64,000 bases of DNA from a virus (lineage: Duplodnaviria; Caudoviricetes), in the IMG/VR virus record IMGVR_UViG_3300027804_000071, positions 913 through 64,912 of that record; one strand, written 5' to 3'. The notes beneath the pieces are model-generated. The model ran no database searches. It saw only the letters and a program-made list of their open reading frames with translations, and had not been told where the DNA came from. Shown in pieces: positions 3 through 23,816 of the stretch (position 1 is its first letter; every line of letters starts with the position of its first letter). The position numbers and the translations under genes were made by a program.

Positions 3-3000
3 GTAACTATTTACAAGAACCCATTTAGCGTTACTCAAGACGAGACTATGCGTCACGAAATCATGCACTCTCTTGAGCAGATGATGACTCCAGAGGCACA
101 GATTGCTCTCGTTAACGCCTGGGCGGATGCTTTATCTAAAGCCATGAAGAAGCACACAGATGAAAGATCTCAGCTGTTCTTCAACGCTGTTCTTGACTAT
201 ATTGAGAACCCAACAAAGGCTAACTACCGTAAGGCAACCAATAAGCTTCCTGACCTTTCTTTCTACCAGTACATGAACCCATCAGAGTTCTGGGCCGTGA
301 ATGGTGAGAAGTTGATGAAGTCTCAGCTAGGTAATTCATGGGCTAGATTCGTTAAGGGTGTTCAGAAGATTCTTGAAGCATTGAAGAATGTATTCGGTTT
401 TGATAACCGTTACGCTGTTCACCGTGAGTTTGACCGCTTGATGAAGGCTGAGTCAGGCCAGATGACAGATACGATGTTGGCTGATTACTTGAAACAAAAT
501 GATGTTGAGATAGAGTTCCTCAATCAGGTAGAAGATGTGGATGAGCTATTAGATCGCCATGAGAGACCTGACACTCCGTTACACCCATCTGATTCAGTAA
601 AAGACCGCTTACTTGACAAGGTTGAAGACTTAAAAGGCTACCGTGACCGTGTGAGAGCCAATCCAAAGGTTGAAGCAGTCAACATGGTTGGCTCAGTAGA
701 CCGTGCTATTACCTACGCTCGTAACAAGAACGTATGGTTTGGCACTGGTTTGGAGTTGGCTGACCTTAAGAAATACATGGGTCAGTTGCGTGATAGCAAC
801 GGTTTCGCTATTGCCTCTATTGCCTTGACTAATGCCTTGCATGCTGGTCACGTAGCGACTCAGGTGATAACACAGGGTGGCTTGAGATTTGACCCAATAA
901 TGCAACAGTTCACAGCATACGCCAGCAAGTATTCATTGGCTAACGTGGTTCGTGAAAAAGCAAAACTAGTCAAGCAGTTAGGTGAGCAGCGAGCCAGTAA
1001 CCTCATTAACAGCTTCTTTGAAGCCAAGCGTTCACGCAGTATCCAGAATGAGTTCTACAACCGCCAGGCTGAGTACGAGACTCTCAAGCAGAAGTTTGAG
1101 GCTGCCGTAGAGACTGAAGAGAAAGACCAGTTATACAAAGACATGGTTGCTTCTAGAGAAGCTTTGGAGCGTGTGTCTGTGGCCATGGATAAGGTCAACA
1201 TGACCGATGAGGCCATTGATGATTTCATCGCCATGGAGAAGAAGTTCCCTGAGCTACGTGAAATGATGAAAAACTGGACGGCTGTTAATCAGAACATGAT
1301 TGACAACATGGAGTTCTCTGGAATTATCAGCAAGAAACGTGCCGCACAGCTTCGTGAGATTGAGGACTATGTGCCTTGGTATCGTATCCAGGACGAGATG
1401 GCAGACCCACATGACCCAGTATCTTCTGGCGTTCGTGGCTTGACCAACGTAGGTAAAGAGAAGAAGTTTAAGAAGGGTGCTACAGATAAGGACATCGATG
1501 ACATCGTGGATAACATGATTCATAACGTCATGATGACTACCCGTAACTCTATTCGTAACTACGCTGCCAACCGTATCGCTATGGAGTATGCGACCCGTAA
1601 TGACAAGGATAAGATTAAGGTATTCCCGAAAGAAGGCGTGATGCCAGACGGTGCTGTTCGTGTCAATATCTTAGCTAACGGCCGTAGGATTGTGATTGAG
1701 ATCAAAGACCCACTAATTGCTGAAGCAGTTCTTGGTATGGAGTCTATTGAGATACCGATGTATAACGTCTTGGGCATGATGGCCAACGGTCTACGCAGAG
1801 GTATTACAACCTTCCCAATCTTCCAAGTTAAGCAGTTATTCATGGATGCTCCTACAGCTGCATGGGTATCTGGTGTGAAGAACCCGTTTGCAGTATGGGG
1901 TAAGACATTTGGCAGCTTTGTGGCAGCCCTCAACCCTAATGACCCAATCGTTAAGATGATGAAGTCATACGGTATTGGCGGTTACCAGTCATCAGCTAGA
2001 ACACCAGAGAAAGAGTTGAAACTCCAGATTGGTTTGATTGGCCGTTCACCATTCGCAAGAATGATGCGCATCCTAGACCATATTGGTGATGCCTCTGACT
2101 ACGCCCAGCGCCGCGCTATCTACAAGCAAGTCTTGAAAGAGACTGGTGATGAGATGCAAGCGTTAATCCAGGCGAACAACGTCATTGACTTCTTGAAGCA
2201 CGGTAGTGCAAAGCATGCCCAGTTCTTGACCAGAACCGTATCGTTTATGAACGCCTATGCTCAGTCAGTGGATGTTTTAGCACAGTCTATGGCTGGTGGC
2301 GGTCTAAAGGGTAAGGAACGCTCTAAGGTGTTTGCTCAGTTCGTTAAAACTGGCATGATCTTGGCTGGCTTGTCATTGCTTTACTCATTCGCTGTAGGTG
2401 ACGATGAGGAATACCAGAAGATGGATGACCAGACGAAGCTTAGAAACTTCATCATTCCTAAGTCATTGACCAAGCTAGTTGGCATGGAAAACTCTGTAAA
2501 GATTCCTATGCACACCACAGCCAGCTTCTTCTTCAAGTCTATGCCTGAGTTGCTATACAACAAGATCATGAACGAAGGAACTAAGAACCATGTGGATAAC
2601 CAGCGCTTGAGAACAGCGATGCGTGAGGCTGCGGTTGATGCGTTGCTTGGCCCTAACGTAACTCCTACTGGTGTTAAGCCGTTCTTAGAGATTGCTTTGA
2701 ACAGAAACTTCTTTACAGGCGGCGCATTGACACCAAAAGGTATGGAGAATCTAGAGGCTTTCCGTCAATACACAGCCAATACATCTGAGTTGGGTAAGGT
2801 CATCAGCAAGGGTACATTCGGTGTATTGAACCCAATTGAGGCTGACCACTTGATGAAGAGCTTGTTAGGTACTGTAGGTGCTTCAGCCATGTGGGGATCT
2901 AACTTGTTCTCTGGTGACCGAGTAGAGCCTAATGCCAGCGCTAATCCGCTATATGGTGCGTTCGTATCAGCTCCTGTGCCTCGTGGTCCAGAAGACATCT

Positions 3001-3305
3001 ATTACGACCTCAAAGAACGTTCTACCAAGGTTTACACCACTTACATTGACATGATGAAGAAAGGTAGAACCGAGGAAGGCAAGAAGTACCGCAGCGAGAA
3101 TGAGGCCCTATTCAAGGCATACGGCTACACCAACGGTGTGGAACAGGGCTTGAAACAGTTGAACGCTGAGATCCGTAGGATTGGTGACTTGCCAGGTGAT
3201 AAGTTGTCTGGCGCGGAGAAACGGGAAAGAATCACCTACTATCAGGGTAAGAAGAACGATATTCTGAAGGATGTGATTGAGTATCGTAAGAGAGCTGGAC
3301 TGTAA
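3..3305 (+). CDS. C-terminal part of a giant polyvalent/DNA-ejection protein (HExxH zincin-like motif; LPD38-like C-terminus); 5'-truncated
   Basis: Frame is open from position 3 (VTIYKNPF...TMRHEIMH), with HEIMH at 54-68. The C-terminal PTGVKPFLEIALNRNFFTG...QYTANTSELGK..NPIEADHL resembles LPD38 (from recall). Confidence 0.75.
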   Translation, partial: VTIYKNPFSVTQDETMRHEIMHSLEQMMTPEAQIALVNAWADALSKAMKKHTDERSQLFFNAVLDYIENPTKANYRKATNKLPDLSFYQYMNPSEFWAVNGEKLMKSQLGNSWARFVKGVQKILEALKNVFGFDNRYAVHREFDRLMKAESGQMTDTMLADYLKQNDVEIEFLNQVEDVDELLDRHERPDTPLHPSDSVKDRLLDKVEDLKGYRDRVRANPKVEAVNMVGSVDRAITYARNKNVWFGTGLELADLKKYMGQLRDSNGFAIASIALTNALHAGHVATQVITQGGLRFDPIMQQFTAYASKYSLANVVREKAKLVKQLGEQRASNLINSFFEAKRSRSIQNEFYNRQAEYETLKQKFEAAVETEEKDQLYKDMVASREALERVSVAMDKVNMTDEAIDDFIAMEKKFPELREMMKNWTAVNQNMIDNMEFSGIISKKRAAQLREIEDYVPWYRIQDEMADPHDPVSSGVRGLTNVGKEKKFKKGATDKDIDDIVDNMIHNVMMTTRNSIRNYAANRIAMEYATRNDKDKIKVFPKEGVMPDGAVRVNILANGRRIVIEIKDPLIAEAVLGMESIEIPMYNVLGMMANGLRRGITTFPIFQVKQLFMDAPTAAWVSGVKNPFAVWGKTFGSFVAALNPNDPIVKMMKSYGIGGYQSSARTPEKELKLQIGLIGRSPFARMMRILDHIGDASDYAQRRAIYKQVLKETGDEMQALIQANNVIDFLKHGSAKHAQFLTRTVSFMNAYAQSVDVLAQSMAGGGLKGKERSKVFAQFVKTGMILAGLSLLYSFAVGDDEEYQKMDDQTKLRNFIIPKSLTKLVGMENSVKIPMHTTASFFFKSMPELLYNKIMNEGTKNHVDNQRLRTAMREAAVDALLGPNVTPTGVKPFLEIALNRNFFTGGALTPKGMENLEAFRQYTANTSELGKVISKGTFGVLNPIEADHLMKSLLGTVGASAMWGSNLFSGDRVEPNASANPLYGAFVSAPVPRGPEDIYYDLKERSTKVYTTYIDMMKKGRTEEGKKYRSENEALFKAYGYTNGVEQGLKQLNAEIRRIGDLPGDKLSGAEKRERITYYQGKKNDILKDVIEYRKRAGL

Positions 3306-3774: not shown

Positions 3775-3819
3775 TTGACATGACTTGCAACTGGTCATAA
3801 TATGGAGGCTCAACTGCTA
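3775..3819 (+). promoter_or_regulatory. sigma70-type promoter with TCAACTGCTA at predicted +1
   Basis: TTGACA (3775-3780), 17 bp, TAATAT (3798-3803); motif at 3810-3819. Confidence 0.75.
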
Positions 3820-5192: not shown

Positions 5193-5920
5193 GTGTATAT
5201 AAAAAACTACAGGATGCACGTATTCAGTTACAGAATACAAAGCTTTCTAAATCAGGGAAAAACAAGTTTGCTGGGTATGAATACTTTGAATTGGGGGACT
5301 TTTTGCCTTCTATTCAGAATATCTGCCAAAAGGTAGGCTTGTGCGGTGTCGTGTCATTCAATGCTGACATGGCTTATCTGACCATCTATGACACAGACGG
5401 TGGCGACAGTAACTTTGTTACCTTCACATCCCCTATGTCATCGGCCGCCCTCAAGGGTTGCCATGATGTGCAGAACCTAGGTGCAGTTCAGACTTACCTA
5501 CGCCGTTATCTATGGACTAATGCTTTTGAGATTGTTGAGCATGATGCCTTGGATGCCACCATGGGTAATGAGAAAACAACTGTAACAGCTGTTACACCCA
5601 AACCAGTAATTAAAACTGTTAATGGTGAGCCTGTTGATAGTAACTTAAAACCAATCAAGCCTATCACTGGTCAAAAAGGTGAGTTCCAGATTGTTGCACC
5701 AGGAATCCCTGATTCAGAGCTAGACATTCCTCAATGGCTAGAGAACATCAAGCAAGCCGCTAGGGTTCTATTGGCTGTTGCTGATAGCGAAGAAGACGTT
5801 ATGCACATCTTCAAGAAGAACAAAGTTTTATTTGATGCAGTAAAAACCACCGATGCCGTGTTCTTCAAGGAACTTATGGCGTTATTCACAGAAGCAAAAA
5901 CACAACTAACTAAGGAGTAA
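5189..5920 (+). CDS. erf: ERF-family single-strand annealing protein
   Basis: KSGKNKFAGYEYFELGDFLP and QNLGAVQTYLRRY motifs; adjacent to the exonuclease. Confidence 0.85.
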   Translation: MSVYKKLQDARIQLQNTKLSKSGKNKFAGYEYFELGDFLPSIQNICQKVGLCGVVSFNADMAYLTIYDTDGGDSNFVTFTSPMSSAALKGCHDVQNLGAVQTYLRRYLWTNAFEIVEHDALDATMGNEKTTVTAVTPKPVIKTVNGEPVDSNLKPIKPITGQKGEFQIVAPGIPDSELDIPQWLENIKQAARVLLAVADSEEDVMHIFKKNKVLFDAVKTTDAVFFKELMALFTEAKTQLTKE

Positions 5921-8751: not shown

Positions 8752-8976
8752 GTGCATATTGAAGGAGTTGCGGAAATGACATCAAAAGATAGGTTTCCAA
8801 ATCACGAAACAATATGCGGTCAATGTGGCACAACAATTTATAAACCATTTAAAGGGTTAAGTGATAAAGAAATAACTGAAGTGTTTGATGAGTGTTACCC
8901 AAATAACGGTGATGGTGATGTTGTTACATTGATTGATTTTGCTAGAGCAATACTAAAGAAAGCGAGTGAGAAATGA
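8752..8976 (+). CDS. Hypothetical protein (start uncertain)
   Basis: GLSDKEI...FARAILKKASEK pattern. Confidence 0.55.
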   Translation: MHIEGVAEMTSKDRFPNHETICGQCGTTIYKPFKGLSDKEITEVFDECYPNNGDGDVVTLIDFARAILKKASEK

Positions 8977-9254: not shown

Positions 9255-9885
9255 AATAATTCACATTATCTGGATTGGCGATCAATCCAAAAAACCAACC
9301 AAGTGCATTGATACTTGGATTAAAAAGAACCCTGATTACGAGGTAAGAGTCTGGGGTAACAATCAAGTTCAGGCGACCAACTGGAAGAACTACCGACAAC
9401 TTAACGACATGATTATCAAACAGGATTGGGCTGGGGCTAGTGACGTGATGCGTTATGAAATCCTGTATGAGCATGGTGGCGTTTATGTGGATGCAGATAC
9501 TTATTGCGTTAAGCCATTAGAAGATTGGCTATTAAATTGCCAAGCGTTTGCCTCTTGGGAACAGGAGCTGGTGCGAAACAATCTGATTGCCAATACTGTG
9601 ATGGGTAGCGTGCCAGGCTCTGAGGCCATGAAGTTGTGCATAGATGAAGTGGCCACAAAGGACTGCACAGAACAGAAACTTGCGTGGATGATCACTGGTC
9701 CGATGCTTGTGACTGATGTATTTTTCAAGAAGCAAGCAAATCTGACGGTGTATCCTTCCCACTTCTTTATGCCAAAGCATCACTCTGGTTATGAAAGTAA
9801 GGTAACGGGTCATCACTTTGCCAGCCACCTATGGGGTTCTGACATTGGTTATGACAATATGGACAAAATTATGGAGAAGAATTAA
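9244..9885 (+). CDS. GT32-like glycosyltransferase (DXD sugar-binding)
   Basis: IPKIIHIIWIG, SDVMRYEILYEHGGVYVDAD and TGP motifs; TTG start. Confidence 0.85.
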   Translation: MIPKIIHIIWIGDQSKKPTKCIDTWIKKNPDYEVRVWGNNQVQATNWKNYRQLNDMIIKQDWAGASDVMRYEILYEHGGVYVDADTYCVKPLEDWLLNCQAFASWEQELVRNNLIANTVMGSVPGSEAMKLCIDEVATKDCTEQKLAWMITGPMLVTDVFFKKQANLTVYPSHFFMPKHHSGYESKVTGHHFASHLWGSDIGYDNMDKIMEKN

Positions 9886-10445
9886 TGAATGTAATTGAAA
9901 ACTTTGTTCCTAAGGTTTACCAAGACAATATTGAGGGTACTTTATTAGATAATAACTTCCCTTGGTATCTACATAAATCAACAGTATCTGAAGCGTATGC
10001 TGGTAACACAGATAAAAACGTGGTTGATAGACCACAATTTGCCCACATTTTTAATGTAAACAATGAAGCTACGTCACAGTATTGGCCTTTGTTACAGCCA
10101 TTTGGTTTCTTTTTGATGGGTAAATCTAACATAGACACGAGTCACGTTCTTAGAGTAAAGGCTAATCTTAATCTTCAAGATGCCTTATTCCCACAAGATA
10201 AATACTTTACACCTCACATTGATTGCCGTGATGCTGCTAAGTTTTTGACTGCTATTTATTATGTGAATGACTCTGACGGAGATACTTTGTTTTTTGATAA
10301 AAAGAAAAACATAGTTAATAGGATTACGCCAAAAAAAGGAACTTTAGTTTACTTTGACGGAAATGAACTTCATGCAGGTCAGTCACCTGTTAAAAGCCAA
10401 TACAGATGTTTAATTAACTTTAACTTTTTAGGAAAAACAAAATGA
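9885..10445 (+). CDS. 2OG-Fe(II) oxygenase
   Basis: PHID (HxD), distal LHAG and RCLINFN; YYVNDSDGDT. Confidence 0.8.
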   Translation: MNVIENFVPKVYQDNIEGTLLDNNFPWYLHKSTVSEAYAGNTDKNVVDRPQFAHIFNVNNEATSQYWPLLQPFGFFLMGKSNIDTSHVLRVKANLNLQDALFPQDKYFTPHIDCRDAAKFLTAIYYVNDSDGDTLFFDKKKNIVNRITPKKGTLVYFDGNELHAGQSPVKSQYRCLINFNFLGKTK

Positions 10446-11630: not shown

Positions 11631-11910
11631 AAATCAAAAACTATTGGAGGCTCTTCGTGAGTCTCCATGCCAACATTGTGGGAGACAAGATGGAACAATT
11701 GTTGCAGCGCACAGTAACCAGCTCAGAGATGGCAAAGGCCGTGGCATCAAGGCACATGACTACAGGACGGCAGCTCTATGCTACGGGTGTCACATGGAGT
11801 TGGATCAGGGCAAGAACCTATCAAAAGCTGAGAGGGAAGAGCTATGGGAAAACGCCCATCGTAAGACGGTAGGCTGGCTCTTTGAAGCAGAAAAACTCGT
11901 AATTAAGTAA
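11623..11910 (+). CDS. DUF1364/DUF968-like zinc-binding (His-Me finger) protein
   Basis: PCQHCG...VAAHSNQ..GKGRGIKAHD...LCYGCH. Confidence 0.7.
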   Translation: MYRNQKLLEALRESPCQHCGRQDGTIVAAHSNQLRDGKGRGIKAHDYRTAALCYGCHMELDQGKNLSKAEREELWENAHRKTVGWLFEAEKLVIK

Positions 11911-12012
11911 AATACCCAAGAGGGCTGTGGAACTCGGCTCGGCGAGTATAAATATCCTGTAACCTAAATCCATTAATATACGACCTCAGCCCTCACTCCA
12001 AATTACTACAGA

Positions 12013-12042
12013 TTGACACAGATCGTAATATTCTGCTATATT
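12013..12042 (+). promoter_or_regulatory. sigma70 promoter of the sRNA
   Basis: TTGACA (12013-12018), 18 bp, extended -10 TGcTATATT (12034-12042). Confidence 0.7.
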
Positions 12043-12047
12043 TAGTG

Positions 12048-12178
12048 TGTCAGACCTCCAAGATACTGACAGCCGTCACTCGCTTTTGATGTAGCAGTTG
12101 ATTGTGAATAAATGACGGCAAGCCCCTCGGTGATCCCCTTCACCCTAAACCCCCAGCTAATCCCTGGGGGTTTTTCTT
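12048..12178 (+). ncRNA. Predicted trans-acting small RNA (three hairpins plus terminator)
   Basis: Stems TGTCAG/CTGACA, GCCGTCA/TGACGGC, GGTGA/TCACC and a terminator; no ORF; own promoter; loops complementary to other phage leaders. Confidence 0.7.
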
Positions 12179-12179
12179 T
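12149..12179 (+). terminator. Intrinsic terminator ending the sRNA
   Basis: ACCCCCAG-ctaatcc-CTGGGGGT followed by TTTTCTTT. Confidence 0.85.
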
Positions 12180-12254
12180 GCCCATTTTCTCCCGATAGCC
12201 AGGCTACAGGGAATTACCTCAAATCAGCTATTTCAGGTAACTCTAAAAAAGTTG

Positions 12255-12299
12255 TTGCAAATTATTTTTATTTCATTTAATCTACAGTTTCAACTGCTA
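12255..12299 (+). promoter_or_regulatory. sigma70 promoter with TCAACTGCTA at predicted +1
   Basis: TTGCAA (12255-12260), 17 bp, TAATCT (12278-12283); motif at 12290-12299. Confidence 0.7.
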
Positions 12300-12694
12300 A
12301 GGATCAAAAGCGAGAACTGAAACAATTTCTCGTAGACAATATGAATATGAACGTGCCACACGTTGGCATTGTCACCTTTGTCTCTTTTGATTCTTAGCAT
12401 ATGACGGACTCCACCCGTTAGCAATGAACCTACATGGGTTGCGTGGAAGAGAACATAGGCTGATTTCATCACCCGATTTAGCCTCGTAGCCTTAAATGGG
12501 GACTACACAAGACGGAGAGGCCAGAGGTGAGACCAACTCTCCATCGATTGAACATTAACTTAGGTAGGACTAGCAGTAACCGTGTTGTAGTGTATGGATT
12601 CGTGGAGTGTTAGTTGTGGGTCAGAGTGATTAAGTACAACAGATCGTTGGCTTATCACCCTTGGGGGAACTATGAGAAAAAGAAAGAGACATAA

Positions 12695-12877
12695 ATGCAG
12701 ATAAAAATACCAAAATTCCAAGCCGTGCGTTACATGGTGCATGACTGGGGTGGCCCAATTCGTGGCTTTGAGACAAGAGCTGAGGCTGAAGACTTTGTTA
12801 ATGGTGACAAATCTTATTGGGTTGAATTCATTCCAAAGAGAGTAGCGACCATTGACGTAGAAGAAGCACCGTTTTAA
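12695..12877 (+). CDS. Hypothetical protein
   Basis: 60-aa ORF containing FETRAEAEDF. Confidence 0.55.
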   Translation: MQIKIPKFQAVRYMVHDWGGPIRGFETRAEAEDFVNGDKSYWVEFIPKRVATIDVEEAPF

Positions 12878-12896
12878 ACTGATTGTTCAACTGCTA
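12852..12896 (+). promoter_or_regulatory. sigma70 promoter of the replication operon with TCAACTGCTA at predicted +1
   Basis: TTGACG (12852-12857), 17 bp, TAAACT (12875-12880); motif at 12887-12896. Confidence 0.7.
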
Positions 12897-12940
12897 GGGG
12901 AAACCGATGGAAAAACACTTATCCGTTTACGGAGGCATTT

Positions 12941-13249
12941 ATGTCTGGTAAACAAAATAAAGAAATCACTGATGCAATCCTTAATGAAATAGCTAACAAG
13001 GGTTGCGTAAGCACTCAAGAGATCGCAGAACTTCTAAAGACAACACCAGCCGTATCTGCTGGGCGTTTGACTTACTTGCGTAAACAGGGTCGTATCGTAG
13101 GCAAGAAGGGTAGATGGGCGTTTCGCATGGAACATCTAAACATCAAGCCAAAAGAACTTCTTGTCAATCAAACATTCAGAGATTTATCAGAAATCTTTGA
13201 CAACATTATTCGTATGGGGTTACCAAATGAAAAAACTCAACATTCTTAA
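12941..13249 (+). CDS. Winged-helix DNA-binding protein
   Basis: RBS GGAGG; VSTQEIAELLKTTPAVSAGRLTYLRKQGRI HTH pattern. Confidence 0.55.
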   Translation: MSGKQNKEITDAILNEIANKGCVSTQEIAELLKTTPAVSAGRLTYLRKQGRIVGKKGRWAFRMEHLNIKPKELLVNQTFRDLSEIFDNIIRMGLPNEKTQHS

Positions 13250-15934: not shown

Positions 15935-16751
15935 AGATTTTGCCAAGCTACATGGGCTGATTATCAGAGACATCACACCCTTTAAGTGGATGTCTACCCC
16001 TACAGAAGATAAGCCACGATCAACTAACGGCAGATACAAATACATGGGTGATGTTGGTTGGGTGCAGAATTGGGCGACCATGGATAAACCAGCCATTTGG
16101 AAACCCGATGAAAAGTTTACGCCTCCACCCGAATTCTTAAAGCAAAGGGATTCCGCCCTGAATGACCGTCAGAAGTTAGCTGACAAGGCATCAGCAAAAG
16201 CGGGATGGATCATGCACCAGACCGCCAACGCTACCCATGAATACCTGGCGAAAAAGGGATTCCCCGAAGAGGAGGGTAATGTCTGGCGGACGGATACTGA
16301 TGAATTGTTAGTGATACCCATGCGTATCTCTGGGAAACTTGTGGGGTGTCAGCTCATCAACACACAGGGGGAGAAGAAGTTCTTGTATGGTCAGCAGACC
16401 AAGGGGGCATCCTTCTGCATTGATGCAAAGGGAACACCTATTTTCTGTGAGGGCTACGCTACGGGGTTGTCTGTCCGTTCCATAATGAAAGCGAACAAAC
16501 TCCGCTACAGTATCCATATTTGCTTTAGTGCAAGCAACCTCAAGGAAGTAGCAAGGCACATCCCCAACGGGATCGTTGTCGCTGATAATGACCCCAACGG
16601 TATCGGTGAGACTGTTGCCAAGGAAACAGGCAAACCGTATTGGATTTCCGACACAGTTGGGGAGGATTTCAATGACTATCACCTCAGAGTAGGACTCTTC
16701 AAGGCGAGCCAGAGCCTTAAACAGATTTTTCTGCATAAGCCAAACTCATAA
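15924..16751 (+). CDS. Toprim-domain DNA primase (plasmid/phage type)
   Basis: YLAKKG, LVIPM...GCQLI..GEKKFLYG, FCEGYATG and VADND motifs. Confidence 0.85.
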   Translation: MRFEDFAKLHGLIIRDITPFKWMSTPTEDKPRSTNGRYKYMGDVGWVQNWATMDKPAIWKPDEKFTPPPEFLKQRDSALNDRQKLADKASAKAGWIMHQTANATHEYLAKKGFPEEEGNVWRTDTDELLVIPMRISGKLVGCQLINTQGEKKFLYGQQTKGASFCIDAKGTPIFCEGYATGLSVRSIMKANKLRYSIHICFSASNLKEVARHIPNGIVVADNDPNGIGETVAKETGKPYWISDTVGEDFNDYHLRVGLFKASQSLKQIFLHKPNS

Positions 16752-17001
16752 GACGAATGAATTTGGCCTCAATCTGCCTAGCTCTTTCACGACCCATGCC
16801 ATGCGGTTTACCACTATCTGCTAGTGTTGCACCTTTGGCACGGGTTTTTAACATTTTCCAATAAGCATCACGGCAATCCTTCGGACTGCGGTAAAACATT
16901 TGATCAAATTCTGATTTTGTTGGGAAATCTACCAAACGGTAGGGAGTGTCCCCTACCACCGTGTAAACAGGGACTCTTCCGTTGCATTTACTTAGATTCA
17001 T
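16717..17001 (-). CDS. Stand-alone sigma70 region-4-like HTH protein
   Basis: TLADSGKPHGMGRERARQIEAKFIRLM resembles sigma70 region 4.2 (TLEEVG...TRERIRQIEAKALRKL). Confidence 0.7.
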   Translation of the reverse strand: MNLSKCNGRVPVYTVVGDTPYRLVDFPTKSEFDQMFYRSPKDCRDAYWKMLKTRAKGATLADSGKPHGMGRERARQIEAKFIRLMSLAYAEKSV

Positions 17002-17002
17002 C

Positions 17003-17176
17003 TCAGTCCCTTGGGTCAATTTCACAAACATCAGTCGTTTCCCAATCGGTAGCCACCTGAATATCATCTTCATCAAGGTAGTCTATTGCCATATCGCAAG
17101 CCTCATCTGCATCACTTGCATCCACGGTCACCACGACCTTAGCCGTGGTGGTCATTGTTATTTCATATCGTCTCAT
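17003..17176 (-). CDS. Small acidic protein (DpnD/PcfM-like pattern)
   Basis: MRRYEITMTTTAKVVVTVDASDADEACDMA; translated manually. Confidence 0.55.
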   Translation of the reverse strand: MRRYEITMTTTAKVVVTVDASDADEACDMAIDYLDEDDIQVATDWETTDVCEIDPRD

Positions 17177-17436
17177 AGTAATCTTAATTCCTCTCTGGTC
17201 ATTGATTGCATCATGTTTTGTTCTTCTTCAAACATATCGTTCATGCCGTTGTCGCCTAGCGTGTGGATATTTATGTGAAAGACCGCATCAGGGTCATACG
17301 GCTCATCATCAAGACAAAATACATTGATGTCGTGATGTTCAAACCCATGCCACCAATCGCATTGGTCAAGGATTTCATCCTTATACTTTTTGATCGTGGC
17401 AAGGACTAATTTCTTATCAACTAAGTAGCTTTTCAT
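17173..17436 (-). CDS. Hypothetical early protein
   Basis: Start MKSYLV after a GAGGG RBS; coupled overlaps. Confidence 0.55.
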   Translation of the reverse strand: MKSYLVDKKLVLATIKKYKDEILDQCDWWHGFEHHDINVFCLDDEPYDPDAVFHINIHTLGDNGMNDMFEEEQNMMQSMTREELRLL

Positions 17437-17600
17437 GGGTTCACCCTCTGGAGTAGTTCCTTCAAGTAACCCAAGCTGATGCCGTGTTGGTCTGCATACC
17501 AAGATAAACATTCCTCTTGGTTCACAAAGCCACCATCTTTGAAATAGTTAGCCTTGACCACGGTCAGCATCTCTCTTACTTCTTGTAGGTCATTCATCAT
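17433..17600 (-). CDS. Hypothetical early protein
   Basis: RBS GAGGAGG; 55 aa; translated manually. Confidence 0.5.
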   Translation of the reverse strand: MMNDLQEVREMLTVVKANYFKDGGFVNQEECLSWYADQHGISLGYLKELLQRVNP

Positions 17601-17781
17601 TGACCTCCTCAATCAAACCCCTGTTAATCATCTCTTCCTGTAGGTCGTTGTCATACCAATTCTCATAGCCAATAAAGCCCTTACGCATAATAAATGCGAA
17701 GTAATCATCCTTATCGTCACGGTCATACCAACTGTTCAAATCATCATCAATCAATAGGTCAATCATCTCGTTGCGGTTCAT
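17590..17781 (-). CDS. Hypothetical acidic early protein
   Basis: Coupled ORF with RBS AAGGAG. Confidence 0.6.
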   Translation of the reverse strand: MNRNEMIDLLIDDDLNSWYDRDDKDDYFAFIMRKGFIGYENWYDNDLQEEMINRGLIEEVNDE

Positions 17782-18041
17782 GCCGTCTCCTTTTTAACCA
17801 TATCAATCCAAAGCTCAATCGTTTCCCAATTGATGCCAATACTAGAATCTGAATACTTTTTCATGTATTTGAGAACATTTAGAGCTTGCTCGTGAGTCAG
17901 TTCATCACCGTTACTCGCACCATAGATGTCTGATATATGCCACCAATCAGCATACCAATCAGGGCTTGTAAGCATCAAAATATCTTCAGCTTGCGGAATA
18001 GCCTGACCCTCTGGCACATCTATCTCAATCATCACCTTCAT
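17778..18041 (-). CDS. Hypothetical early protein
   Basis: WHISDI...LT.EQA..VL...D..IGINW.TI pattern, common in phages. Confidence 0.6.
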   Translation of the reverse strand: MKVMIEIDVPEGQAIPQAEDILMLTSPDWYADWWHISDIYGASNGDELTHEQALNVLKYMKKYSDSSIGINWETIELWIDMVKKETA

Positions 18042-18238
18042 ACATCCTCCTTCTGTCTATCCCATGCCATACCAGATACCTCATAAAGTTTATTTTGAAA
18101 ATCACGCAAGGCATCTATCTGGTCAGCCTCAAAAAACATATTGGTCATTTGGTGGGTCGTCTCCACCCAACGAGCAATAAACTGTTCCTTAGTTAATTTC
18201 ACAGGTTTAAAAAACCCATCAAAGGTCTTTGTTTCCAT
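18038..18238 (-). CDS. Hypothetical early protein
   Basis: RBS TTGGAGG; start METK. Confidence 0.6.
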   Translation of the reverse strand: METKTFDGFFKPVKLTKEQFIARWVETTHQMTNMFFEADQIDALRDFQNKLYEVSGMAWDRQKEDV

Positions 18239-18252
18239 AGTTCCTCCAAGAA

Positions 18253-18307
18253 CGGCCAACATTAGCCCACAAACCCACTCCGCAGAATGGGCTTGTAGAT
18301 AATGCTA
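18253..18307 (-). ncRNA. Structured intergenic RNA element, copy A
   Basis: UAGCAUU/AAUGUUG outer stem, internal loop, 9-bp inner stem; homologous to 20283-20336. Confidence 0.65.
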
Positions 18308-18457
18308 CTTACTGAAACTTCTCATCCAAGCCAAGAGAATGGTCTTCGCCTCCTTACGGTCAAGACCGAATTCAGCCTCTAGGTAAGGTGATGCAAGCAA
18401 CATATTGGTCTCGCCAGAGTCCCGTAGGTCATTGAGGTAGTCAAAGTATTGGCTCAT
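18305..18457 (-). CDS. Hypothetical 50-aa protein
   Basis: MSQYFDYLNDLRDSGETNMLLASPYL...WMRSFSK; RBS GGAGG. Confidence 0.65.
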   Translation of the reverse strand: MSQYFDYLNDLRDSGETNMLLASPYLEAEFGLDRKEAKTILLAWMRSFSK

Positions 18458-18458
18458 C

Positions 18459-19046
18459 TCAATCCTCCCACAACTCGTAAGCATTAAGAATATCCATCTC
18501 GTTCAAGATGTCTGATGGGATACCTTTGAGGCTTTCTCTGGTGACCCGACCCTCGTCATCAGTCTTAATGTCATAGGTGTCGTCCTGACCATCCATCCAT
18601 AACCCACAGAAGGCACATCCGCCCTCGTGGTAATAGGCACGGACTGTAAAGCCTAGCTCTTCCAATTTGGCATAGGCATCTGTCGGAGGTGACCAAGCAG
18701 AATCAAAGTAAACAAACATATCGTTATCGCCACCTTGAGCCTTGTTATCCCTGTCGTCACTATGACCAATGTCCCACTTAGTCCCCCAATTCTGTATTCG
18801 CCAATCCCACCATGCATCCTCACGGATGGTCGGTTCATTAGCCAATGCTTTAGCCTTTTCCTCTTCGGTCTTGGCAAAATCTGCCATGATGTTCGGGAAT
18901 GTCTGAGGCACAGGTGTAACTGTGTAATCAGGTTCAGGCACAAAGGTCGCCAAGAAATTACCAGAATCCCAAGCCTCTTTGGCTTTTTTGATCATCTCTG
19001 GGTCTTCGTGAGTTAAATATAGGTTGTTATCGCACCAATTAGGCAT
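18459..19046 (-). CDS. DUF1281/YubB (Api92-like) ferredoxin-like domain protein
   Basis: MPNWCDN...WWDWRIQNWGTKWD...FDSAWSPP...YHEGG. Confidence 0.75.
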   Translation of the reverse strand: MPNWCDNNLYLTHEDPEMIKKAKEAWDSGNFLATFVPEPDYTVTPVPQTFPNIMADFAKTEEEKAKALANEPTIREDAWWDWRIQNWGTKWDIGHSDDRDNKAQGGDNDMFVYFDSAWSPPTDAYAKLEELGFTVRAYYHEGGCAFCGLWMDGQDDTYDIKTDDEGRVTRESLKGIPSDILNEMDILNAYELWED

Positions 19047-19194
19047 TTTCATTCTCCTTGAGTTTATAAAAGTTAAATACAGATACATCTTGAAACTTCA
19101 CACAATCATTTAGGTATTGGATTAGTGCATCCACAGCCTCTTCCTCGTTCTCTACTTCTATTTCATCTTGAAAAGTAACCTCAAATTTAGGCAT
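19039..19194 (-). CDS. 51-aa acidic protein (array member)
   Basis: MPKFEVTFQDEIEVENEEEAVDAL; ATGCCTAA overlaps at both ends. Confidence 0.6.
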   Translation of the reverse strand: MPKFEVTFQDEIEVENEEEAVDALIQYLNDCVKFQDVSVFNFYKLKENENA

Positions 19195-19342
19195 TTTCAA
19201 TCTCCATAGTTTCAGCTACAAAAGGGTCGTTCAAATCATCATTACTAAACATTCCCCATGCGAGGTCTTCTGCATCTTTTTCATCAAAAGCCTCTACTTC
19301 ATAGACAACGCATCTCTCAATTACGACCTGATATTTAGGCAT
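19187..19342 (-). CDS. 51-aa acidic protein (DpnD/PcfM-like pattern)
   Basis: MPKYQVVIERCVVYEVEAFDEKDAEDLAWGMF. Confidence 0.6.
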   Translation of the reverse strand: MPKYQVVIERCVVYEVEAFDEKDAEDLAWGMFSNDDLNDPFVAETMEIENA

Positions 19343-19511
19343 CTTTTTCCTCCTCAATTAAGTCAGCCTCTTCGCAAAGAAATTCAGGATGTTCGGGTGT
19401 TATCTCGCCATCCTTATACATACCCCATGCGACCATTTCAGCATCTCTGGGGTCTTCCGCCTCTACTTCTACATAGATTGCAGTAGTCATTAGCACACTC
19501 CATTTAGGCAT
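19335..19511 (-). CDS. 58-aa acidic protein (paralog of 19187-19342)
   Basis: MPKWSVLMTTAIYVEVEAEDPRDAEMVAWGMY. Confidence 0.6.
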   Translation of the reverse strand: MPKWSVLMTTAIYVEVEAEDPRDAEMVAWGMYKDGEITPEHPEFLCEEADLIEEEKDA

Positions 19512-19704
19512 TTTCATTTATCCCTTCTGTGATTTGTTTAACCCCACACACCGCCAAAATGATTTCACGGCAACTTGAATCAACTCCAAAATCTTTACAA
19601 ATGTCTGCCCAATCATGAGGAATAACCTCAGGGTTCAGTCTTACCCATCCACCCTGTGGCAATACCTCATAACCGTTTTCTACCAATTCTTCTTCGGTAA
19701 TCAT
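19504..19704 (-). CDS. Hypothetical early protein
   Basis: RBS AAGGGGG; ends ENA* overlapping the next ATG. Confidence 0.6.
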   Translation of the reverse strand: MITEEELVENGYEVLPQGGWVRLNPEVIPHDWADICKDFGVDSSCREIILAVCGVKQITEGINENA

Positions 19705-19845
19705 AATTTCCCCCTTGCCTGTAGCTCTTCTTCAATGTCATAAACTAGCATGATGTCTTTAACACCCAAGCCCCCAAAATGTAGCTCTTTCAATAGTGTT
19801 CTTAACTGCCTGACGGTCATGTTTTTAACATTCATCAGTCACCTC

Positions 19846-20070
19846 CTACCAATCACAGAGGACGGTCTCGCCCTCTTCGTTGCGAACCTCAGACCCCATA
19901 GATTCAGACCAAGACCATGCCATATCAATAATTCGGTCATTGGGTTCGCTAGACTCCACTAGATCAATAGAACTGCCATCATTCATGGCAATCTCATTAG
20001 CCTCCTCTGGCGACTCTGCAAGCACTTCATACTCAACAATCGCATAAACATAAACCGTGTATCTATTCAT
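19846..20070 (-). CDS. Acidic protein (DpnD/PcfM-like pattern)
   Basis: MNRYTVYVYAIVEYEVLAESPEEANEIA. Confidence 0.55.
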   Translation of the reverse strand: MNRYTVYVYAIVEYEVLAESPEEANEIAMNDGSSIDLVESSEPNDRIIDMAWSWSESMGSEVRNEEGETVLCDW

Positions 20071-20266
20071 AATTCACCTCCGTAATCGTGAAATCATCCC
20101 CAATAACTGCCCCAACTTGCAACGGCTCACCATCCATGTAATGGAAAATGCTTTCGTCCTCAAGGTCTTCGACCTCATCCCATGACCCAAGGGCAATTTT
20201 TACATCAAAGATATTTTCGGGGTCTTCTGACCAATGACCCTCGCACCATACCGTTTTGTATTTCAT
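20063..20266 (-). CDS. Hypothetical early protein
   Basis: RBS TTGGAGGT. Confidence 0.6.
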   Translation of the reverse strand: MKYKTVWCEGHWSEDPENIFDVKIALGSWDEVEDLEDESIFHYMDGEPLQVGAVIGDDFTITEVNYE

Positions 20267-20282
20267 ATAACCTCCAAGTTAT

Positions 20283-20336
20283 CGGCTAACATTAGCCCAA
20301 TAGGTCACTCAGCGAATGACCTATTAGAAAATGCTA
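20283..20336 (-). ncRNA. Structured intergenic RNA element, copy B
   Basis: Same flanks and loop as copy A; 9-bp inner stem differs in sequence but remains paired. Confidence 0.65.
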
Positions 20337-20600
20337 CCCCCTTAATAATGGTAAAACTTGGTCTCTGTCGTGACTCGTGAACAATGAGCCTCCCTCGTTG
20401 CCTTCATCATCACATGATGGAAAAATCCAAATGCCACTATCTAAAAGCATGGTCACAGGGCGACCAGACCATCCCATATTTTCTGACTCTTCATCTGTTA
20501 AATAGCGAACCTTGACTATTTTGCGACCAAGTAACAGGTCAGAGGCGACCTTATCCCAATGCTTAGTTAATTCTTTGTCGTTCATTTCGTGCAGTTTCAT
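20334..20600 (-). CDS. Hypothetical early protein
   Basis: LLGRKIVKVRYLT.EE...W...IFPSCDDEGNEGG, a common phage family. Confidence 0.65.
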   Translation of the reverse strand: MKLHEMNDKELTKHWDKVASDLLLGRKIVKVRYLTDEESENMGWSGRPVTMLLDSGIWIFPSCDDEGNEGGSLFTSHDRDQVLPLLRG

Positions 20601-21101
20601 TTATGCCACCTTTTTAAAATCGTTAAAAAATACAGACCCATCAGCTAAATAATCGTATTCGTTGAGGGTTAGAGTCTCGTCAATGTTGTTATCGCTATAA
20701 AAATCCTCTACATCACGGCTAACATAGTTAAGGAATGACTCTATAGCTTGCTGATACGCATACATGGAATCTCCTGTAGCCTTAAAACTGTCGTGAAACT
20801 CTTCCCAAAGTGAGCAGTCAGCACAGTAGCCTGTTGGCATATGGTCACGGCTAAAATCTTTTAGCTTTAACCCACGGAAATTGTGCTTGCCTAGGTCGGT
20901 TTTAATAAAAGCATGGCGGGTATCGCCAACAGACCAATTAAGCATTGAACCGCCAAAATGACCAATAAAAGCCTTGGCTGATTCCATATTTTCATCAAAC
21001 CAAGGATATTCCCAAGTGGAACGAAAGACCTCCCTCGCCTTTTCCTTGGCTTCCTCTTCTAATTCATCAAAACTAAAAACCTGAATTTCTACCTTTTCCA
21101 T
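20601..21101 (-). CDS. Hypothetical early protein
   Basis: RBS TTGGAGGT; VFSFDELEEEAKEKARE...NEYDYLADG. Confidence 0.65.
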   Translation of the reverse strand: MEKVEIQVFSFDELEEEAKEKAREVFRSTWEYPWFDENMESAKAFIGHFGGSMLNWSVGDTRHAFIKTDLGKHNFRGLKLKDFSRDHMPTGYCADCSLWEEFHDSFKATGDSMYAYQQAIESFLNYVSRDVEDFYSDNNIDETLTLNEYDYLADGSVFFNDFKKVA

Positions 21102-21188
21102 ATAACCTCCAAAATTACGCACCCACCCTAAAGATTAACCACCACCCTGACCCGTTGCGTATAGGTCTGGGGGTCGGTTTTTTGATCG

Positions 21189-21290
21189 CTAGCTGTTAGA
21201 GATAAACGACCAAGCAAACAAAAAAGCAAGCCCACCCATCACGGCAAGACTAGCGACCCACTCGAGCAACATAACAACGAACCGCCTCAC
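21189..21290 (-). CDS. 33-aa hydrophobic peptide
   Basis: GTG start in a GTGA overlap; MRRFVVMLLEWVASLAVMGGLAFLFAWSFISNS. Confidence 0.5.
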   Translation of the reverse strand: MRRFVVMLLEWVASLAVMGGLAFLFAWSFISNS

Positions 21291-21475
21291 GATTGCACCT
21301 GAGAGACAGAGACACCATAGACGGCTAGAAACTTAATAGCCTCTTTGTCCATCTTCACGGCTTTAGACATCAGCCCCGACAATTCGGCAGATGTTCTGGA
21401 CGGGTTGCCCTGTTCCAGATGGTGACGAGCCACGGCACGAGGCACGGGGCGAGAATTAACATAAAATTGAATCAT
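21287..21475 (-). CDS. Hypothetical early protein
   Basis: Coupled ORF. Confidence 0.55.
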   Translation of the reverse strand: MIQFYVNSRPVPRAVARHHLEQGNPSRTSAELSGLMSKAVKMDKEAIKFLAVYGVSVSQVQS

Positions 21476-21648
21476 CTTTCAAACTCCACCAAAGTATTCA
21501 AAAGGTAGTCTCTGACTGAGTAGCCTGTGACCTCTGGGTGAGTCTCTGCGAGTGCTTTGTATTCCATAAAAAACTCAGCCGAGTCCTTATCGGAAAACTT
21601 AGCAATTGCCTCGCTTGTTTCGGTAGTGTGGCGATATACATAAAACAT
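21472..21648 (-). CDS. Hypothetical early protein
   Basis: RBS TGGAGGT just 3' of the hammerhead cleavage site. Confidence 0.6.
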   Translation of the reverse strand: MFYVYRHTTETSEAIAKFSDKDSAEFFMEYKALAETHPEVTGYSVRDYLLNTLVEFER

Positions 21649-21665
21649 AAAAACCTCCATTTAAT

Positions 21666-21718
21666 GACTAAGACCGTCCTGAGACGGTTTCGGCTAATAA
21701 AGCCCTCATCAGTTAGCC
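21666..21718 (-). ncRNA. Type I hammerhead ribozyme
   Basis: Minus strand: GGCUAA-CUGAUGA-G-GGCU(uuauu)AGCC-GAAA-CCGUC(ucag)GACGG-UC^-UUAGUC; full core, three stems, GUC triplet. Confidence 0.85.
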
Positions 21719-21904
21719 TTGAATCGCTTTTTGCATCTCCTTGGCGAGTTCTATCCACGAGTCAGCATTGATTAAACCCATTGAAGGATATTGCTCAGGG
21801 GTGGACTCTGCGACCTGAGCCGTGTAACGGTTTACCGCCTCCAAAATCATCAGAGGGGCTAAAGGGTGAGAGTCTAGAAGTGCTTGGACTGTTTTAGGGT
21901 TCAT
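21713..21904 (-). CDS. Hypothetical early protein
   Basis: Its stop codon lies in hammerhead stem I. Confidence 0.6.
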   Translation of the reverse strand: MNPKTVQALLDSHPLAPLMILEAVNRYTAQVAESTPEQYPSMGLINADSWIELAKEMQKAIQG

Positions 21905-22332
21905 ACTGTCGCCTCTTTGCTGATGTAGTAGGCGAGAGTCTGCCCCTTTTTGTTGTATTCACCCTGTAAAGAGAGACCCAAAGCCCTAGCGATTCTTTTC
22001 ATTGAATCAAGACCGCAAGCACCGTCAAGACAGACCGACCCATCTGGGCGAATGGTCAAGCCATAGAATGAAGGGTTTATATCCTCGGCAATCTGTAGCC
22101 ACGAAGTAGAGCCATAAGGCACTTTTGGCAAATCCTTAACGAGGGCTTTCAATTCGTCCTGATATTCACACTCTAAGAAATCCCCGAAGACCTTCCCAGT
22201 CATGTCATAGCCACCACCTGAGCAACGATACCGCTTGCCAGAGTTGCGAGAATCAAGACGGCAGATGTTGTAGCCGTAAGTGTCACGACCACGAGAGACA
22301 GACCAAGACAAAGCTAAACGATTGATAAACAT
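21901..22332 (-). CDS. Hypothetical early protein
   Basis: RBS TGGAGGT; YRCSGGGYDMTG...LDGACG, a common phage family. Confidence 0.65.
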   Translation of the reverse strand: MFINRLALSWSVSRGRDTYGYNICRLDSRNSGKRYRCSGGGYDMTGKVFGDFLECEYQDELKALVKDLPKVPYGSTSWLQIAEDINPSFYGLTIRPDGSVCLDGACGLDSMKRIARALGLSLQGEYNKKGQTLAYYISKEATV

Positions 22333-22348
22333 TTTTCAGACCTCCAGA

Positions 22349-22543
22349 TTAAAAAGTAAAACCAACAAAAACAGAACGAGAACCACGGACAAATTTTTCG
22401 TGATTGATGTCGTCAAACTTGTAAATAGAATAAGAGCGAGACTCACGGTCATAGTCACCACGAACCCAAACAGGCGAAGACTCAGAATCTTTCAGCTTGA
22501 TAAATTCCCCCTTCGGTATTGCTTTAATTGTCATTTGTTCCAT
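22349..22543 (-). CDS. First gene of the leftward early operon (hypothetical)
   Basis: RBS AGGAG abuts the TCAACTGCTA motif; GEFIKL...VWVRGDYDR..YS. Confidence 0.65.
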   Translation of the reverse strand: MEQMTIKAIPKGEFIKLKDSESSPVWVRGDYDRESRSYSIYKFDDINHEKFVRGSRSVFVGFTF

Positions 22544-22602
22544 TGTGAAAACTCCTAGCAGTTGATTGATGCGAATAGTCACCTATTGACTAATCTCGCC
22601 TG

Positions 22603-22650
22603 ATTTTCATTGCTTGGGGGGTTGCTTGTCAATACCCTAATAAAAATAAA
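22603..22650 (-). promoter_or_regulatory. Leftward sigma70 early promoter
   Basis: TTGACA on minus (22632-22627) with an AT-rich UP-like tract; -10 weak (GAAAAT, 18-bp spacer). Confidence 0.55.
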
Positions 22651-22808
22651 TTTACAGGCTTATAGATAAAGGCTTGCGAGAGAGTTTCCGAGGCCGTTCT
22701 AGTGATCAAAAACATAAAAGGCGGATAGATTAGCCGAAGGCGAACAGTCCATTATTGATAGAGTCACATAGAGACAGACACACACCAGAGAGACCAATCT
22801 TGCGAGAG

Positions 22809-22837
22809 TTGCAACACTCTTCAGACCGTCCTATTCT
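22809..22837 (+). promoter_or_regulatory. Rightward sigma70 promoter for packaging genes
   Basis: TTGCAA, 17 bp, TATTCT. Confidence 0.55.
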
Positions 22838-22868
22838 CTAGGGTATAAAAATACCCTGTTTATACCCT

Positions 22869-23816
22869 ATGACCAAAAAACCGAAACTAACTCGCAAGCA
22901 GATAACCGAAGGACTGCAACAGATGCCGATTGAGACCATTCTCTTAGGTGCGAACAATGCGAAGGAAAAGAGACTCACCGCCTCACAGATTAAGTTTGCC
23001 GAGGAAATCGCCAAGGGTAAGACCAAGGCAGAGGCATACAGACAGAGCAGACCGAACGGTAAGAAAAGCAATGCAAAACCCTCCACAGCATCACGAAAGG
23101 GTCAAGAGCTTTCAAAGGTGGACGCAATACAGACGCAAATAGAGGCTTTTAAAGTGGCTTTAGAAGCTCAGAAATATCAAACCCCCCTTCACTTGAGGGC
23201 TTTGACAATCCATAAACTCACAGAAAAGGTGCTAGACCCTAACTGCCCACCCGCCCAACAGATAAAAGCCATGGAGTTATTGGGTAAGATTACCGAGGTC
23301 GCACTCTTCACCGAGAGACGAGAGGTCATTCAGCACAACACGAGCGACCAGATGAAAGAGAAGCTCCTCTCTTCTCTTCGCCTGGCGATTTCTTCTCAGG
23401 GTGTAACAGATGTTACAGAGACAGACCCAGAGTCATTACTGGCAGAGCTGACCGCCAAGCCGTTAGATATGACCATAGACTCGGATTATGTCGCTGATGA
23501 TGATGTATCTCTGGCACAAGAGACCAATGAACCAGAGGCGGAGGGGTTGAACGATCTGGAATCTGCCGACCCTACCACTCCCCGACCCCCTTTTTTACAA
23601 AATTTGCAGGCGTCACCTATGCATAGTAATCCACACACTCAATCTCCTAAAAATACCATGCCCTTGCAACCCATTGATTCTTCAGAAGTTTCATGTGTAA
23701 CACCTGTTACATCTAGGGTAAACCCTAATGTTACAGAGGGGGAGGGGGGTATAAATATACCTGTCGGTGATTTGGAGTCAGAATTACGGACACCCCCCGT
23801 CAACGTTTCTAAATAA
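22869..23816 (+). CDS. terS: Terminase small subunit (with long acidic low-complexity tail)
   Basis: LTASQIKFAEEIAKGKTKAEAYRQS...ASRKGQELSK HTH; upstream of terL. Confidence 0.65.
   Translation: MTKKPKLTRKQITEGLQQMPIETILLGANNAKEKRLTASQIKFAEEIAKGKTKAEAYRQSRPNGKKSNAKPSTASRKGQELSKVDAIQTQIEAFKVALEAQKYQTPLHLRALTIHKLTEKVLDPNCPPAQQIKAMELLGKITEVALFTERREVIQHNTSDQMKEKLLSSLRLAISSQGVTDVTETDPESLLAELTAKPLDMTIDSDYVADDDVSLAQETNEPEAEGLNDLESADPTTPRPPFLQNLQASPMHSNPHTQSPKNTMPLQPIDSSEVSCVTPVTSRVNPNVTEGEGGINIPVGDLESELRTPPVNVSK

Follow-up and report, generated by a model that had tools for sequence, protein, structure and literature searches.

What is the role of the stretch of about 1 kb that, in the genome of an uncultured freshwater phage, separates an HNH-endonuclease gene (ending at 11910) from a small gene cluster without containing any convincing ORF? 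The DNA analysed here (64,000 nt, hereafter the window) belongs to a virus record of 64.9 kb (rated 100% complete) that comes from a freshwater metagenome; in this record, the cluster found 3' of the gap leads into ParB-like, helicase and primase genes (names according to PHROGs). A preliminary description of this DNA had proposed that the gap encodes a small RNA whose loops are antisense to several leaders of the phage and which would work as a master switch of its early and middle genes. Our analysis of the window and of related phages indicates that the region very probably produces an antisense RNA by which the phage regulates its own replication and early genes (Table 1).

The putative transcription unit starts with a promoter that fits 11 of the 12 consensus positions of the sigma-70 type and carries a TG extension. 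Two alignments of 14 and 28 relatives show hardly any change, if at all, in its -35 and -10 blocks. Behind this promoter, the segment 12045-12180 is predicted to fold at -45.5 kcal/mol, versus -29.7 +/- 3.5 kcal/mol for shuffled versions of the same segment (z = -4.58), and none of 200 shuffles equals it. The initial proposal that a promoter, three hairpins and a strong terminator enclose an ORF-free unit of ~130 nt is borne out by these values and by the lack of a conserved ORF in the unit. An ORF of 47 aa that was called mechanically on the minus strand (12042-12185) was rejected as a gene and is regarded as non-coding, because the indels in the family alignment are not multiples of three. 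More generally, the unit displays, as sequence predictions, the features by which trans-encoded small RNAs are usually recognized: a promoter of its own, a U-tailed terminator, an accessible and conserved seed, and targets located at 5' ends or ribosome sites. Rfam reported no family at gathering score in the whole window and nothing relevant at E <= 10 in 11850-13000. A membership in the C4/CI family, which had been envisaged, is not supported since no C4-type match was obtained at this last threshold in the same interval. Between the HNH gene and the small RNA promoter, a weak match to the Pistol ribozyme (11932-11983, plus strand; 22 bits for a cut-off of 34.5, E = 0.18) was noticed and discarded; no pseudoknot partner could be recognized by eye and the match is probably due to chance.

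Table 1. Position of the predicted elements in the window and, where a contig is named, in related phages
Feature	Position	Strand	Description
Small RNA promoter	12013-12042	+	-35 at 12013-12018, 18-nt spacer, extended -10 at 12034-12042
Predicted small RNA (~130 nt)	12048-12178	+	Both ends predicted; fold z-score and covariance model R1
Hairpin 1	12048-12071	+	C-rich loop at 12054-12065; 5/5 modelled pairs covary
Stem-loop 2 (seed carrier)	12072-12119	+	Predicted fold
Seed region	12079-12101	+	Block B (12079-12090) and block A (12092-12101), with exact complements at 12303-12314 and 12290-12299, respectively
Hairpin 3	12129-12144	+	Predicted fold; relatives have a hairpin there with other stems and loops
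Intrinsic terminator	12147-12178	+	Stem-loop 12147-12173 (10-bp stem, 7-nt loop), then T-run; 9/10 pairs covary
Target promoter	12255-12283	+	-35 at 12255-12260, 17-nt spacer, -10 at 12278-12283; predicted +1 at ~12290
Main target site	12290-12314	+	First 25 nt of the transcript; 10 + 12 nt pairing with a small bulge
Leader cis hairpin	12290-12404	+	5' arm is the target site; inverted repeat I1, direct repeats D2 and D6
Conserved structured RNA (~300 nt)	12405-12690	+	No ORF >= 30 aa on the + strand; no Rfam match
RF02932 matches in relatives	L035 5559-5681; L013 607-729; L071 17632-17751 (-)		~100 nt downstream of the small RNA
Second promoter with tag	Promoter 12852-12880; tag 12887-12896	+	Tag at predicted +1; ahead of wHTH-like, ParB-like, helicase and primase genes
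Promoter with tag	Promoter 3775-3803; tag 3810-3819	+	Tag at predicted +1; ahead of small membrane protein, exonuclease and Erf genes
13-nt antisense match	22556-22568	-	Directly before the ribosome site of gene 1 of the leftward early operon; promoter 22632-22603
Hammerhead-like cores	L071 ~8870-8925, 9385-9438, 10110-10165; L073 ~18295-18347, 18955-19008, 20205-20260; window 21666-21718 (-)		Recognized by eye

Related phages were retrieved with the ParB-like protein, yielding 61 virus contigs, and nhmmer detected the unit upstream of the ParB-like gene in many of them. The conserved hairpin pattern led to 43 further loci with ~28 true members, and a covariance model (R1) built from 28 members matches the small RNA in 51 of 75 related sources. 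The small RNA has a constant orientation and is located directly upstream of the next promoter at every locus checked, and all the family members that were found sit in virus contigs. In the stem alignment, which is fitted to the model, 97% of the cells are paired and 18 of the 20 pairs display changes on both sides; for the pairing in this model-fitted alignment, none of 500 shuffles is as good and no slid register comes close. The predicted fold of the small RNA is thus conserved among relatives, with some variation around this common architecture. The loop sequence of hairpin 1 varies in the family alignment, the outer 7-bp stem of stem-loop 2 is restricted to the clade formed by the window and its nearest relative (L060), and the seed of most relatives lies within a linker 5' of a short conserved hairpin.

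The seed core is predicted to be largely exposed, with an unpaired probability of 0.75 in the window and of 0.65 as family mean, versus 0.44 for the whole RNA. Its exact 10-mer is present five times in the window, at 3810, 12290 and 12887 on the plus strand, at 22556 on the minus strand, and as an inverted copy at 12092 inside the RNA itself. These four antisense copies, versus ~0.12 expected for a random 10-mer, confirm that the segment 12092-12101 is the exact complement of a motif found in four leaders. Three of them (3810, 12290 and 12887) begin at the predicted +1 of sigma-70-type promoters, and the fourth one immediately adjoins the ribosome site of the gene that opens the leftward early operon. 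The longer pairings put forward beforehand (12 + 10 nt with 12290-12314 and 13 nt with 22556-22568) proved exact as well, the second of them ending against this same ribosome site. As a control, all the 9-mers of the RNA body were counted (0.49 matches expected); five antisense matches were obtained for the two seed 9-mers only, the others giving between 0 and 4. These exact-complement counts replaced a scan of the whole window by RNAduplex with the full RNA body, where long looped artefacts dominate. Two additional seeds had been suggested in loops 1 and 3, and both were rejected since they perform no better than background. The 9-mers matched by loop 1 at 18243 and 20270 hold an ordinary GGAGG ribosome site, and its longer matches of 10 nt are found at non-leader places (48082, plus strand; 60374, minus strand). 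As to loop 3, 7-mers are expected several times by chance and the loop is not conserved in relatives.

The strongest argument for a functional interaction comes from the comparison of seed and leader across phages. In every phage checked, a second promoter is located ~20-100 nt 3' of the small RNA terminator, and the transcript opens at the predicted +1 with the complement of the seed region. A short seed core is common to most phages, and the adjoining 10-15 nt vary from phage to phage with complementarity being kept; several phages reach 14-18 continuous pairs and the mismatches are mostly of the G-U type. The window and L060 illustrate this behavior, as their second block differs at most positions and both keep 12 exact pairs. 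In distant clades (L045, L048 and the group L046/L054/L057-L059), even the core of the seed has given way to unrelated sequence, with compensating changes in the leader. For 29 non-redundant pairs, the duplex energy, computed without accessibility term, is -31.4 kcal/mol for cognate versus -22.3 kcal/mol for non-cognate partners (permutation p <= 1e-5), and -13.2 versus -6.4 kcal/mol when the conserved core is masked (p <= 1e-5). When the phage's own leader is reversed or shuffled, the duplex weakens from -31.4 to -19.3 or -17.2 kcal/mol, respectively (Wilcoxon p = 4e-9 in both cases). The shared ancestry of the relatives is addressed by this cognate versus non-cognate design together with the reversed-leader control. 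The cognate small RNA is the best partner of 20 of the 29 leaders, and the cognate duplex of the window (-34.3 kcal/mol) ranks first among 13 small RNAs. Seed-target covariation in related phages, which had been named beforehand as the check to be made, is therefore clearly positive. These comparisons show that the predicted complementarity to the adjacent leader is conserved and co-evolves with its target, and pairing with this leader is well supported on that basis. We hold with high confidence that the ~130-nt RNA is a genuine antisense RNA acting on the adjacent leader. One exceptional pair was also encountered. The loci of L091 (2278-2398, minus strand) and L089 (4286-4405, minus strand) share an identical leader and differ in the variable flank of the small RNA seed; the natural pair of L091 is poorly matched (duplex of -23 versus -38.5 kcal/mol), and this phage is perhaps a recent recombinant.

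The same data bear on a possible role at the DNA level, in which the 10-mer would be an operator or a promoter +1 element and its copy in the hairpin unit accidental. The exact +1 position of three copies would suit such a site, but the inverted copy is always found in the exposed region of the RNA, the complementarity extends into co-evolving variable flanks, and the tag of the relatives stands at a fixed distance from start codons, even inside operons where it follows ribozyme-like cores instead of promoters. A DNA site is hardly credible in our opinion. The preference initially given to an RNA role is borne out by a seed that is antisense to phage leaders with co-varying flanks, and the search for a minus-strand promoter fitting the inverted seed copy was negative, as first reported.

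Besides the adjacent leader, three other operons of the window carry the tag, namely the recombination module, the operon behind the inner promoter ahead of the ParB-like, helicase and primase genes, and the leftward early operon. The match of the leftward early operon is located ~30 nt behind its own promoter. Antisense seed copies are also numerous in some relatives (six in G003, five in G004 and five in G007), all of them directly before start codons and over the AGGAG ribosome site, and G001 has three copies at orthologous places. In G006 and G008, no multi-gene tag set was found at the 9-mer level and the adjacent leader is the sole target. Therefore, the idea of one RNA addressing several operons is supported as far as a shared tag goes in the window, G003, G004 and G007, but not in G006 and G008, and the designation as a "master switch" applies at best to part of the family. 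The adjacent leader appears as the universal target and the multi-gene tag as an addition in some clades, which is real but limited. At the second promoter, an upstream ORF of 14 codons (12907-12951, plus strand) starts 10 nt past the tag and reaches into the gene starting at 12941. This overlap suggests translational coupling, and a block of the upstream ORF could therefore silence the genes that follow it. Between consecutive early genes, cores resembling hammerheads were observed (stem I, CUGAUGAG, stem II, GAAAC, stem III, GUC). In relatives, their predicted cut falls 8-10 nt before the small RNA target tag. They were reported by Rfam neither at gathering score nor at E <= 1 (window 16500-23000).

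How could the small RNA act on its main target? The target promoter has a similar arrangement in all relatives checked, and its transcript starts ~110 nt downstream of the small RNA on the same strand. The target site is embedded in a long cis hairpin, with a predicted energy of -39.8 kcal/mol in the window and of -21 to -37 kcal/mol in most relatives, and an equivalent hairpin is found in nearly all of them. Its 3' arm (12368-12404) resembles the seed region of the small RNA (repeats D2 and D6); cis and trans pairing are therefore mutually exclusive. That the target site is hidden by a cis hairpin in nearly all members fits a competition switch. No convincing terminator that would form only upon binding of the small RNA was recognized by inspection. 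At the apex of the hairpin, a near-palindrome of ~16 nt around AACGAUUAAAUUCGUU is conserved in most relatives (L035 ~5515-5540) and absent from the leaders of the window and L060; it could be a protein-binding or loop-contact site.

The explanation that we favor as a whole, with moderate confidence, is a trans-acting antisense small RNA performing an early-to-middle shut-off. Transcription of this RNA would begin at a strong promoter of the host type and stop at a terminator, both belonging to the unit itself. The exposed seed would pair with the first 14-25 nt of the downstream transcript, and 10-13 nt of the same seed would pair with the tags found at the 5' end or ribosome site of the three other operons. 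On the adjacent leader, it may either catch the nascent 5' arm before the closure of the cis hairpin or invade the hairpin from its 5' end. Pairing would then lower expression through an RNase III-type cleavage of the 14-25-bp duplex or through leader refolding, while it would block ribosome access at the tagged sites. On balance, repression is the effect that we somewhat prefer from these sequence features. Several observations speak against this explanation. The target is locked in a stable cis hairpin that leaves little free 5' toehold, and the small RNA promoter looks stronger than that of the target, which is puzzling under pure repression. The poor match of the natural L091 pair and the absence of the multi-gene tag, at the 9-mer level, from G006 and G008 count against it as well. 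Because of the cis hairpin and the promoter strength, and since the pairing in the window leader ends just before the ribosome site and not over it, activation, a sponge function and replication control stay alive as alternatives.

In the case of activation, the small RNA would open the leader hairpin and thereby activate the RNA or genes located downstream, or the two RNAs would form a working two-piece complex. Since pairing would engage the 5' arm of a stable cis hairpin, the 3' arm would be freed; the stronger promoter of the small RNA would fit a required cofactor; and leader pairing is universal whereas the ribosome-site tag is clade-limited. However, the freed 3' arm is pyrimidine-rich and devoid of a ribosome site, and the seed of relatives covers the AGGAG of as many as six genes, the arrangement classically associated with repression. 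We regard activation as an unlikely minority reading. As a sponge, the 5' end of the leader would titrate the small RNA and thereby relieve the tagged early genes from repression as soon as the second promoter becomes active. The match of the leader is indeed the longest one in the window (22 nt versus 10-13 nt elsewhere), and no conserved ORF start is found behind its ribosome-site-like 5' end. Yet a site hidden in a cis hairpin would be a poor design for a sponge, and G006 and G008 keep the pair without other detectable targets, which makes this function quite improbable.

Behind the leader hairpin, the target transcript continues into a structured RNA. This RNA was detected by nhmmer with E values down to 4e-25 in phages with distantly related ParB-like genes, and its alignment shows invariant blocks together with compensatory changes in hairpins. 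In RNA libraries, considered as assembled contigs only, no contig was found over 11888-12357 and contigs of relatives from three studies lie over 12402-12635. Small ORFs and then the replication genes follow, and no terminator was found between the structured RNA and these ORFs. Relatives without the ~300-nt RNA carry in the equivalent slot the Rfam motif RF02932 (Betaproteobacteria-1, 90-98 bits). In these relatives, RF02932 is located within the target transcript, behind the leader hairpin, and the position of the small RNA itself gives no RF02932 match. The window contains no match to RF02932. Since RF02932 fills the slot behind the targeted leader, this orphan motif occurs in phages within a transcript that is predicted to be under antisense control.

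This organization recalls the replication control of ColE1-type plasmids. In such a scheme, the RNA starting at 12290 would serve as primer or origin RNA; by refolding its 5' end, the small RNA would determine when or how often it can prime. In line with this idea, an RNA with three stem-loops would pair with the very 5' end of a structured RNA that is conserved and immediately precedes the ParB-like, helicase and primase genes, and a cotranscriptional competition with the cis hairpin resembles the kinetics of RNA I/RNA II. Nevertheless, we judge it improbable: the small RNA is encoded upstream on the same strand and is not a countertranscript, no terminator was found between the structured RNA and the following ORFs, a quite different RNA (RF02932) occupies the equivalent slot in relatives, the GC skew examined in search of an origin tracks the direction of transcription only, and the additional ribosome-site targets would be left unexplained. 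In a broader speculation of low probability, the small RNA and the leader would constitute a portable cotranscriptional folding switch that gates a catalytic or replication-priming structured RNA, be it the 300-nt RNA or Betaproteobacteria-1. If true, a virulent phage would control the replication of its genome by RNA in the manner of plasmids or, alternatively, the two RNAs would make up a functional two-piece RNA joined by a co-evolving intermolecular helix.

An immunity or dormancy RNA of the P1 c4 or P4 CI type, which would silence the resident phage or exclude superinfecting relatives, had also been considered at the outset. A bipartite antisense match just downstream of the RNA's own gene is in favor of this function, and variable seed flanks would give a phage-specific (hetero-immune) recognition. 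The genomic context, however, argues otherwise. Neither a tyrosine or serine recombinase, a resolvase nor ParA was found in this record rated as complete, in agreement with the earlier remark that no integrase is recognizable, and no close prophage copy is present among 185,579 reference genomes. A search for prophages or hosts with the ParB-like protein in reference bacterial genomes returned two remote matches only, and the GenBank phage collection gave no useful match in near and distant modes. The phage is probably virulent. Dormancy or superinfection immunity is unlikely because no integrase or ParA was found; adding the lack of a C4-family match in Rfam and the exclusive occurrence of the family in virus contigs, we consider it very improbable.

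The putative shut-off RNA would nonetheless be most like c4 and P4 CI from a functional viewpoint, i.e., trans antisense RNAs located beside their leader targets. The c4 RNA (immI) uses short exposed stretches to bind a bipartite site located at the ribosome site or close to it, and the specificity differs between related phages. This trans-acting RNA of P1/P7 is encoded just upstream of its target (PMC12197685). Similarly, exposed segments of the RNA described here are complementary to a two-part target just downstream (10 + 12 nt in the window; similar or continuous in relatives). Unlike c4, which is cut from the transcript of an antirepressor immunity operon in a temperate phage, the phage RNA has its own conserved promoter and terminator; it also seems to lack an immunity context, as judged from the searches for integrase, resolvase and ParA in a phage that is probably virulent, and it would mainly target the very start of a transcript, inside a cis hairpin. 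For P4 CI (seqB versus seqA/seqC), complementarity to the neighboring leader competes with pairing inside this leader, and the same type of competition between trans and cis pairing is predicted here. However, CI is generated by processing of that same leader and acts by premature termination in a satellite prophage, whereas the phage RNA is a separate transcription unit for which no small-RNA-dependent terminator was found.

Other antisense systems share one aspect or another with this locus. Plasmids of the ColE1 (RNA I/RNA II) and pT181 types rely on small RNAs with several hairpins, which target a structured RNA at its 5' end during its synthesis, beside replication genes. The phage RNA would likewise target the 5' end of a structured RNA near replication genes, probably within a short window of action, but it is encoded on the same strand as its target and ~110 nt apart without minus-strand promoter, in contrast to ColE1 RNA I, CopA and pT181 RNA I, which are transcribed from the strand opposite their target and fully complementary to it. 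Moreover, its pairing involves 14-25 nt versus about 100 for countertranscripts of the ColE1 and pT181 types. DsrA and RprA pair with the 5' arm of the rpoS leader hairpin and free the other arm. The pairing predicted here likewise involves the 5' arm of a long hairpin in the leader, although the arm freed in rpoS holds the ribosome site and leads to activation, while it is pyrimidine-rich in the phage leader. Finally, P22 sar and lambda OOP are small phage RNAs that lower phage gene expression by pairing, with the involvement of RNase III in the case of OOP (PMC12197685). Both overlap their targets on the opposite strand, unlike the RNA reported here, which is encoded apart from all its targets.

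To our knowledge, control of a phage's own genes has been described for few phage small RNAs, the classic examples (c4, CI, sar and OOP) stemming from temperate phages that infect enteric bacteria. Here, a group of uncultured and probably virulent freshwater phages is predicted to keep a separately transcribed small RNA, which suggests that gene timing by RNA pairing is commoner in phages than cultured models show. This family offers dozens of natural and mutually orthogonal RNA-target pairs that are directly testable. In addition, it places the orphan Rfam motif Betaproteobacteria-1 and an uncatalogued RNA of 300 nt inside a phage transcript that would be controlled by RNA. The RF02932 matches, together with the origin of the source samples, point to a freshwater betaproteobacterium as host, which is only a lead at this stage. 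As a last observation on the genome, giant ORFs are present at both ends of the record, one running off (58236-63998, plus strand) and the other running in (3-3305, plus strand). This suggests that both are parts of one protein of >3000 aa in a circularly permuted record, and, when compared with PHROGs, this split ORF weakly matches virion RNA polymerases in their N-terminal part.
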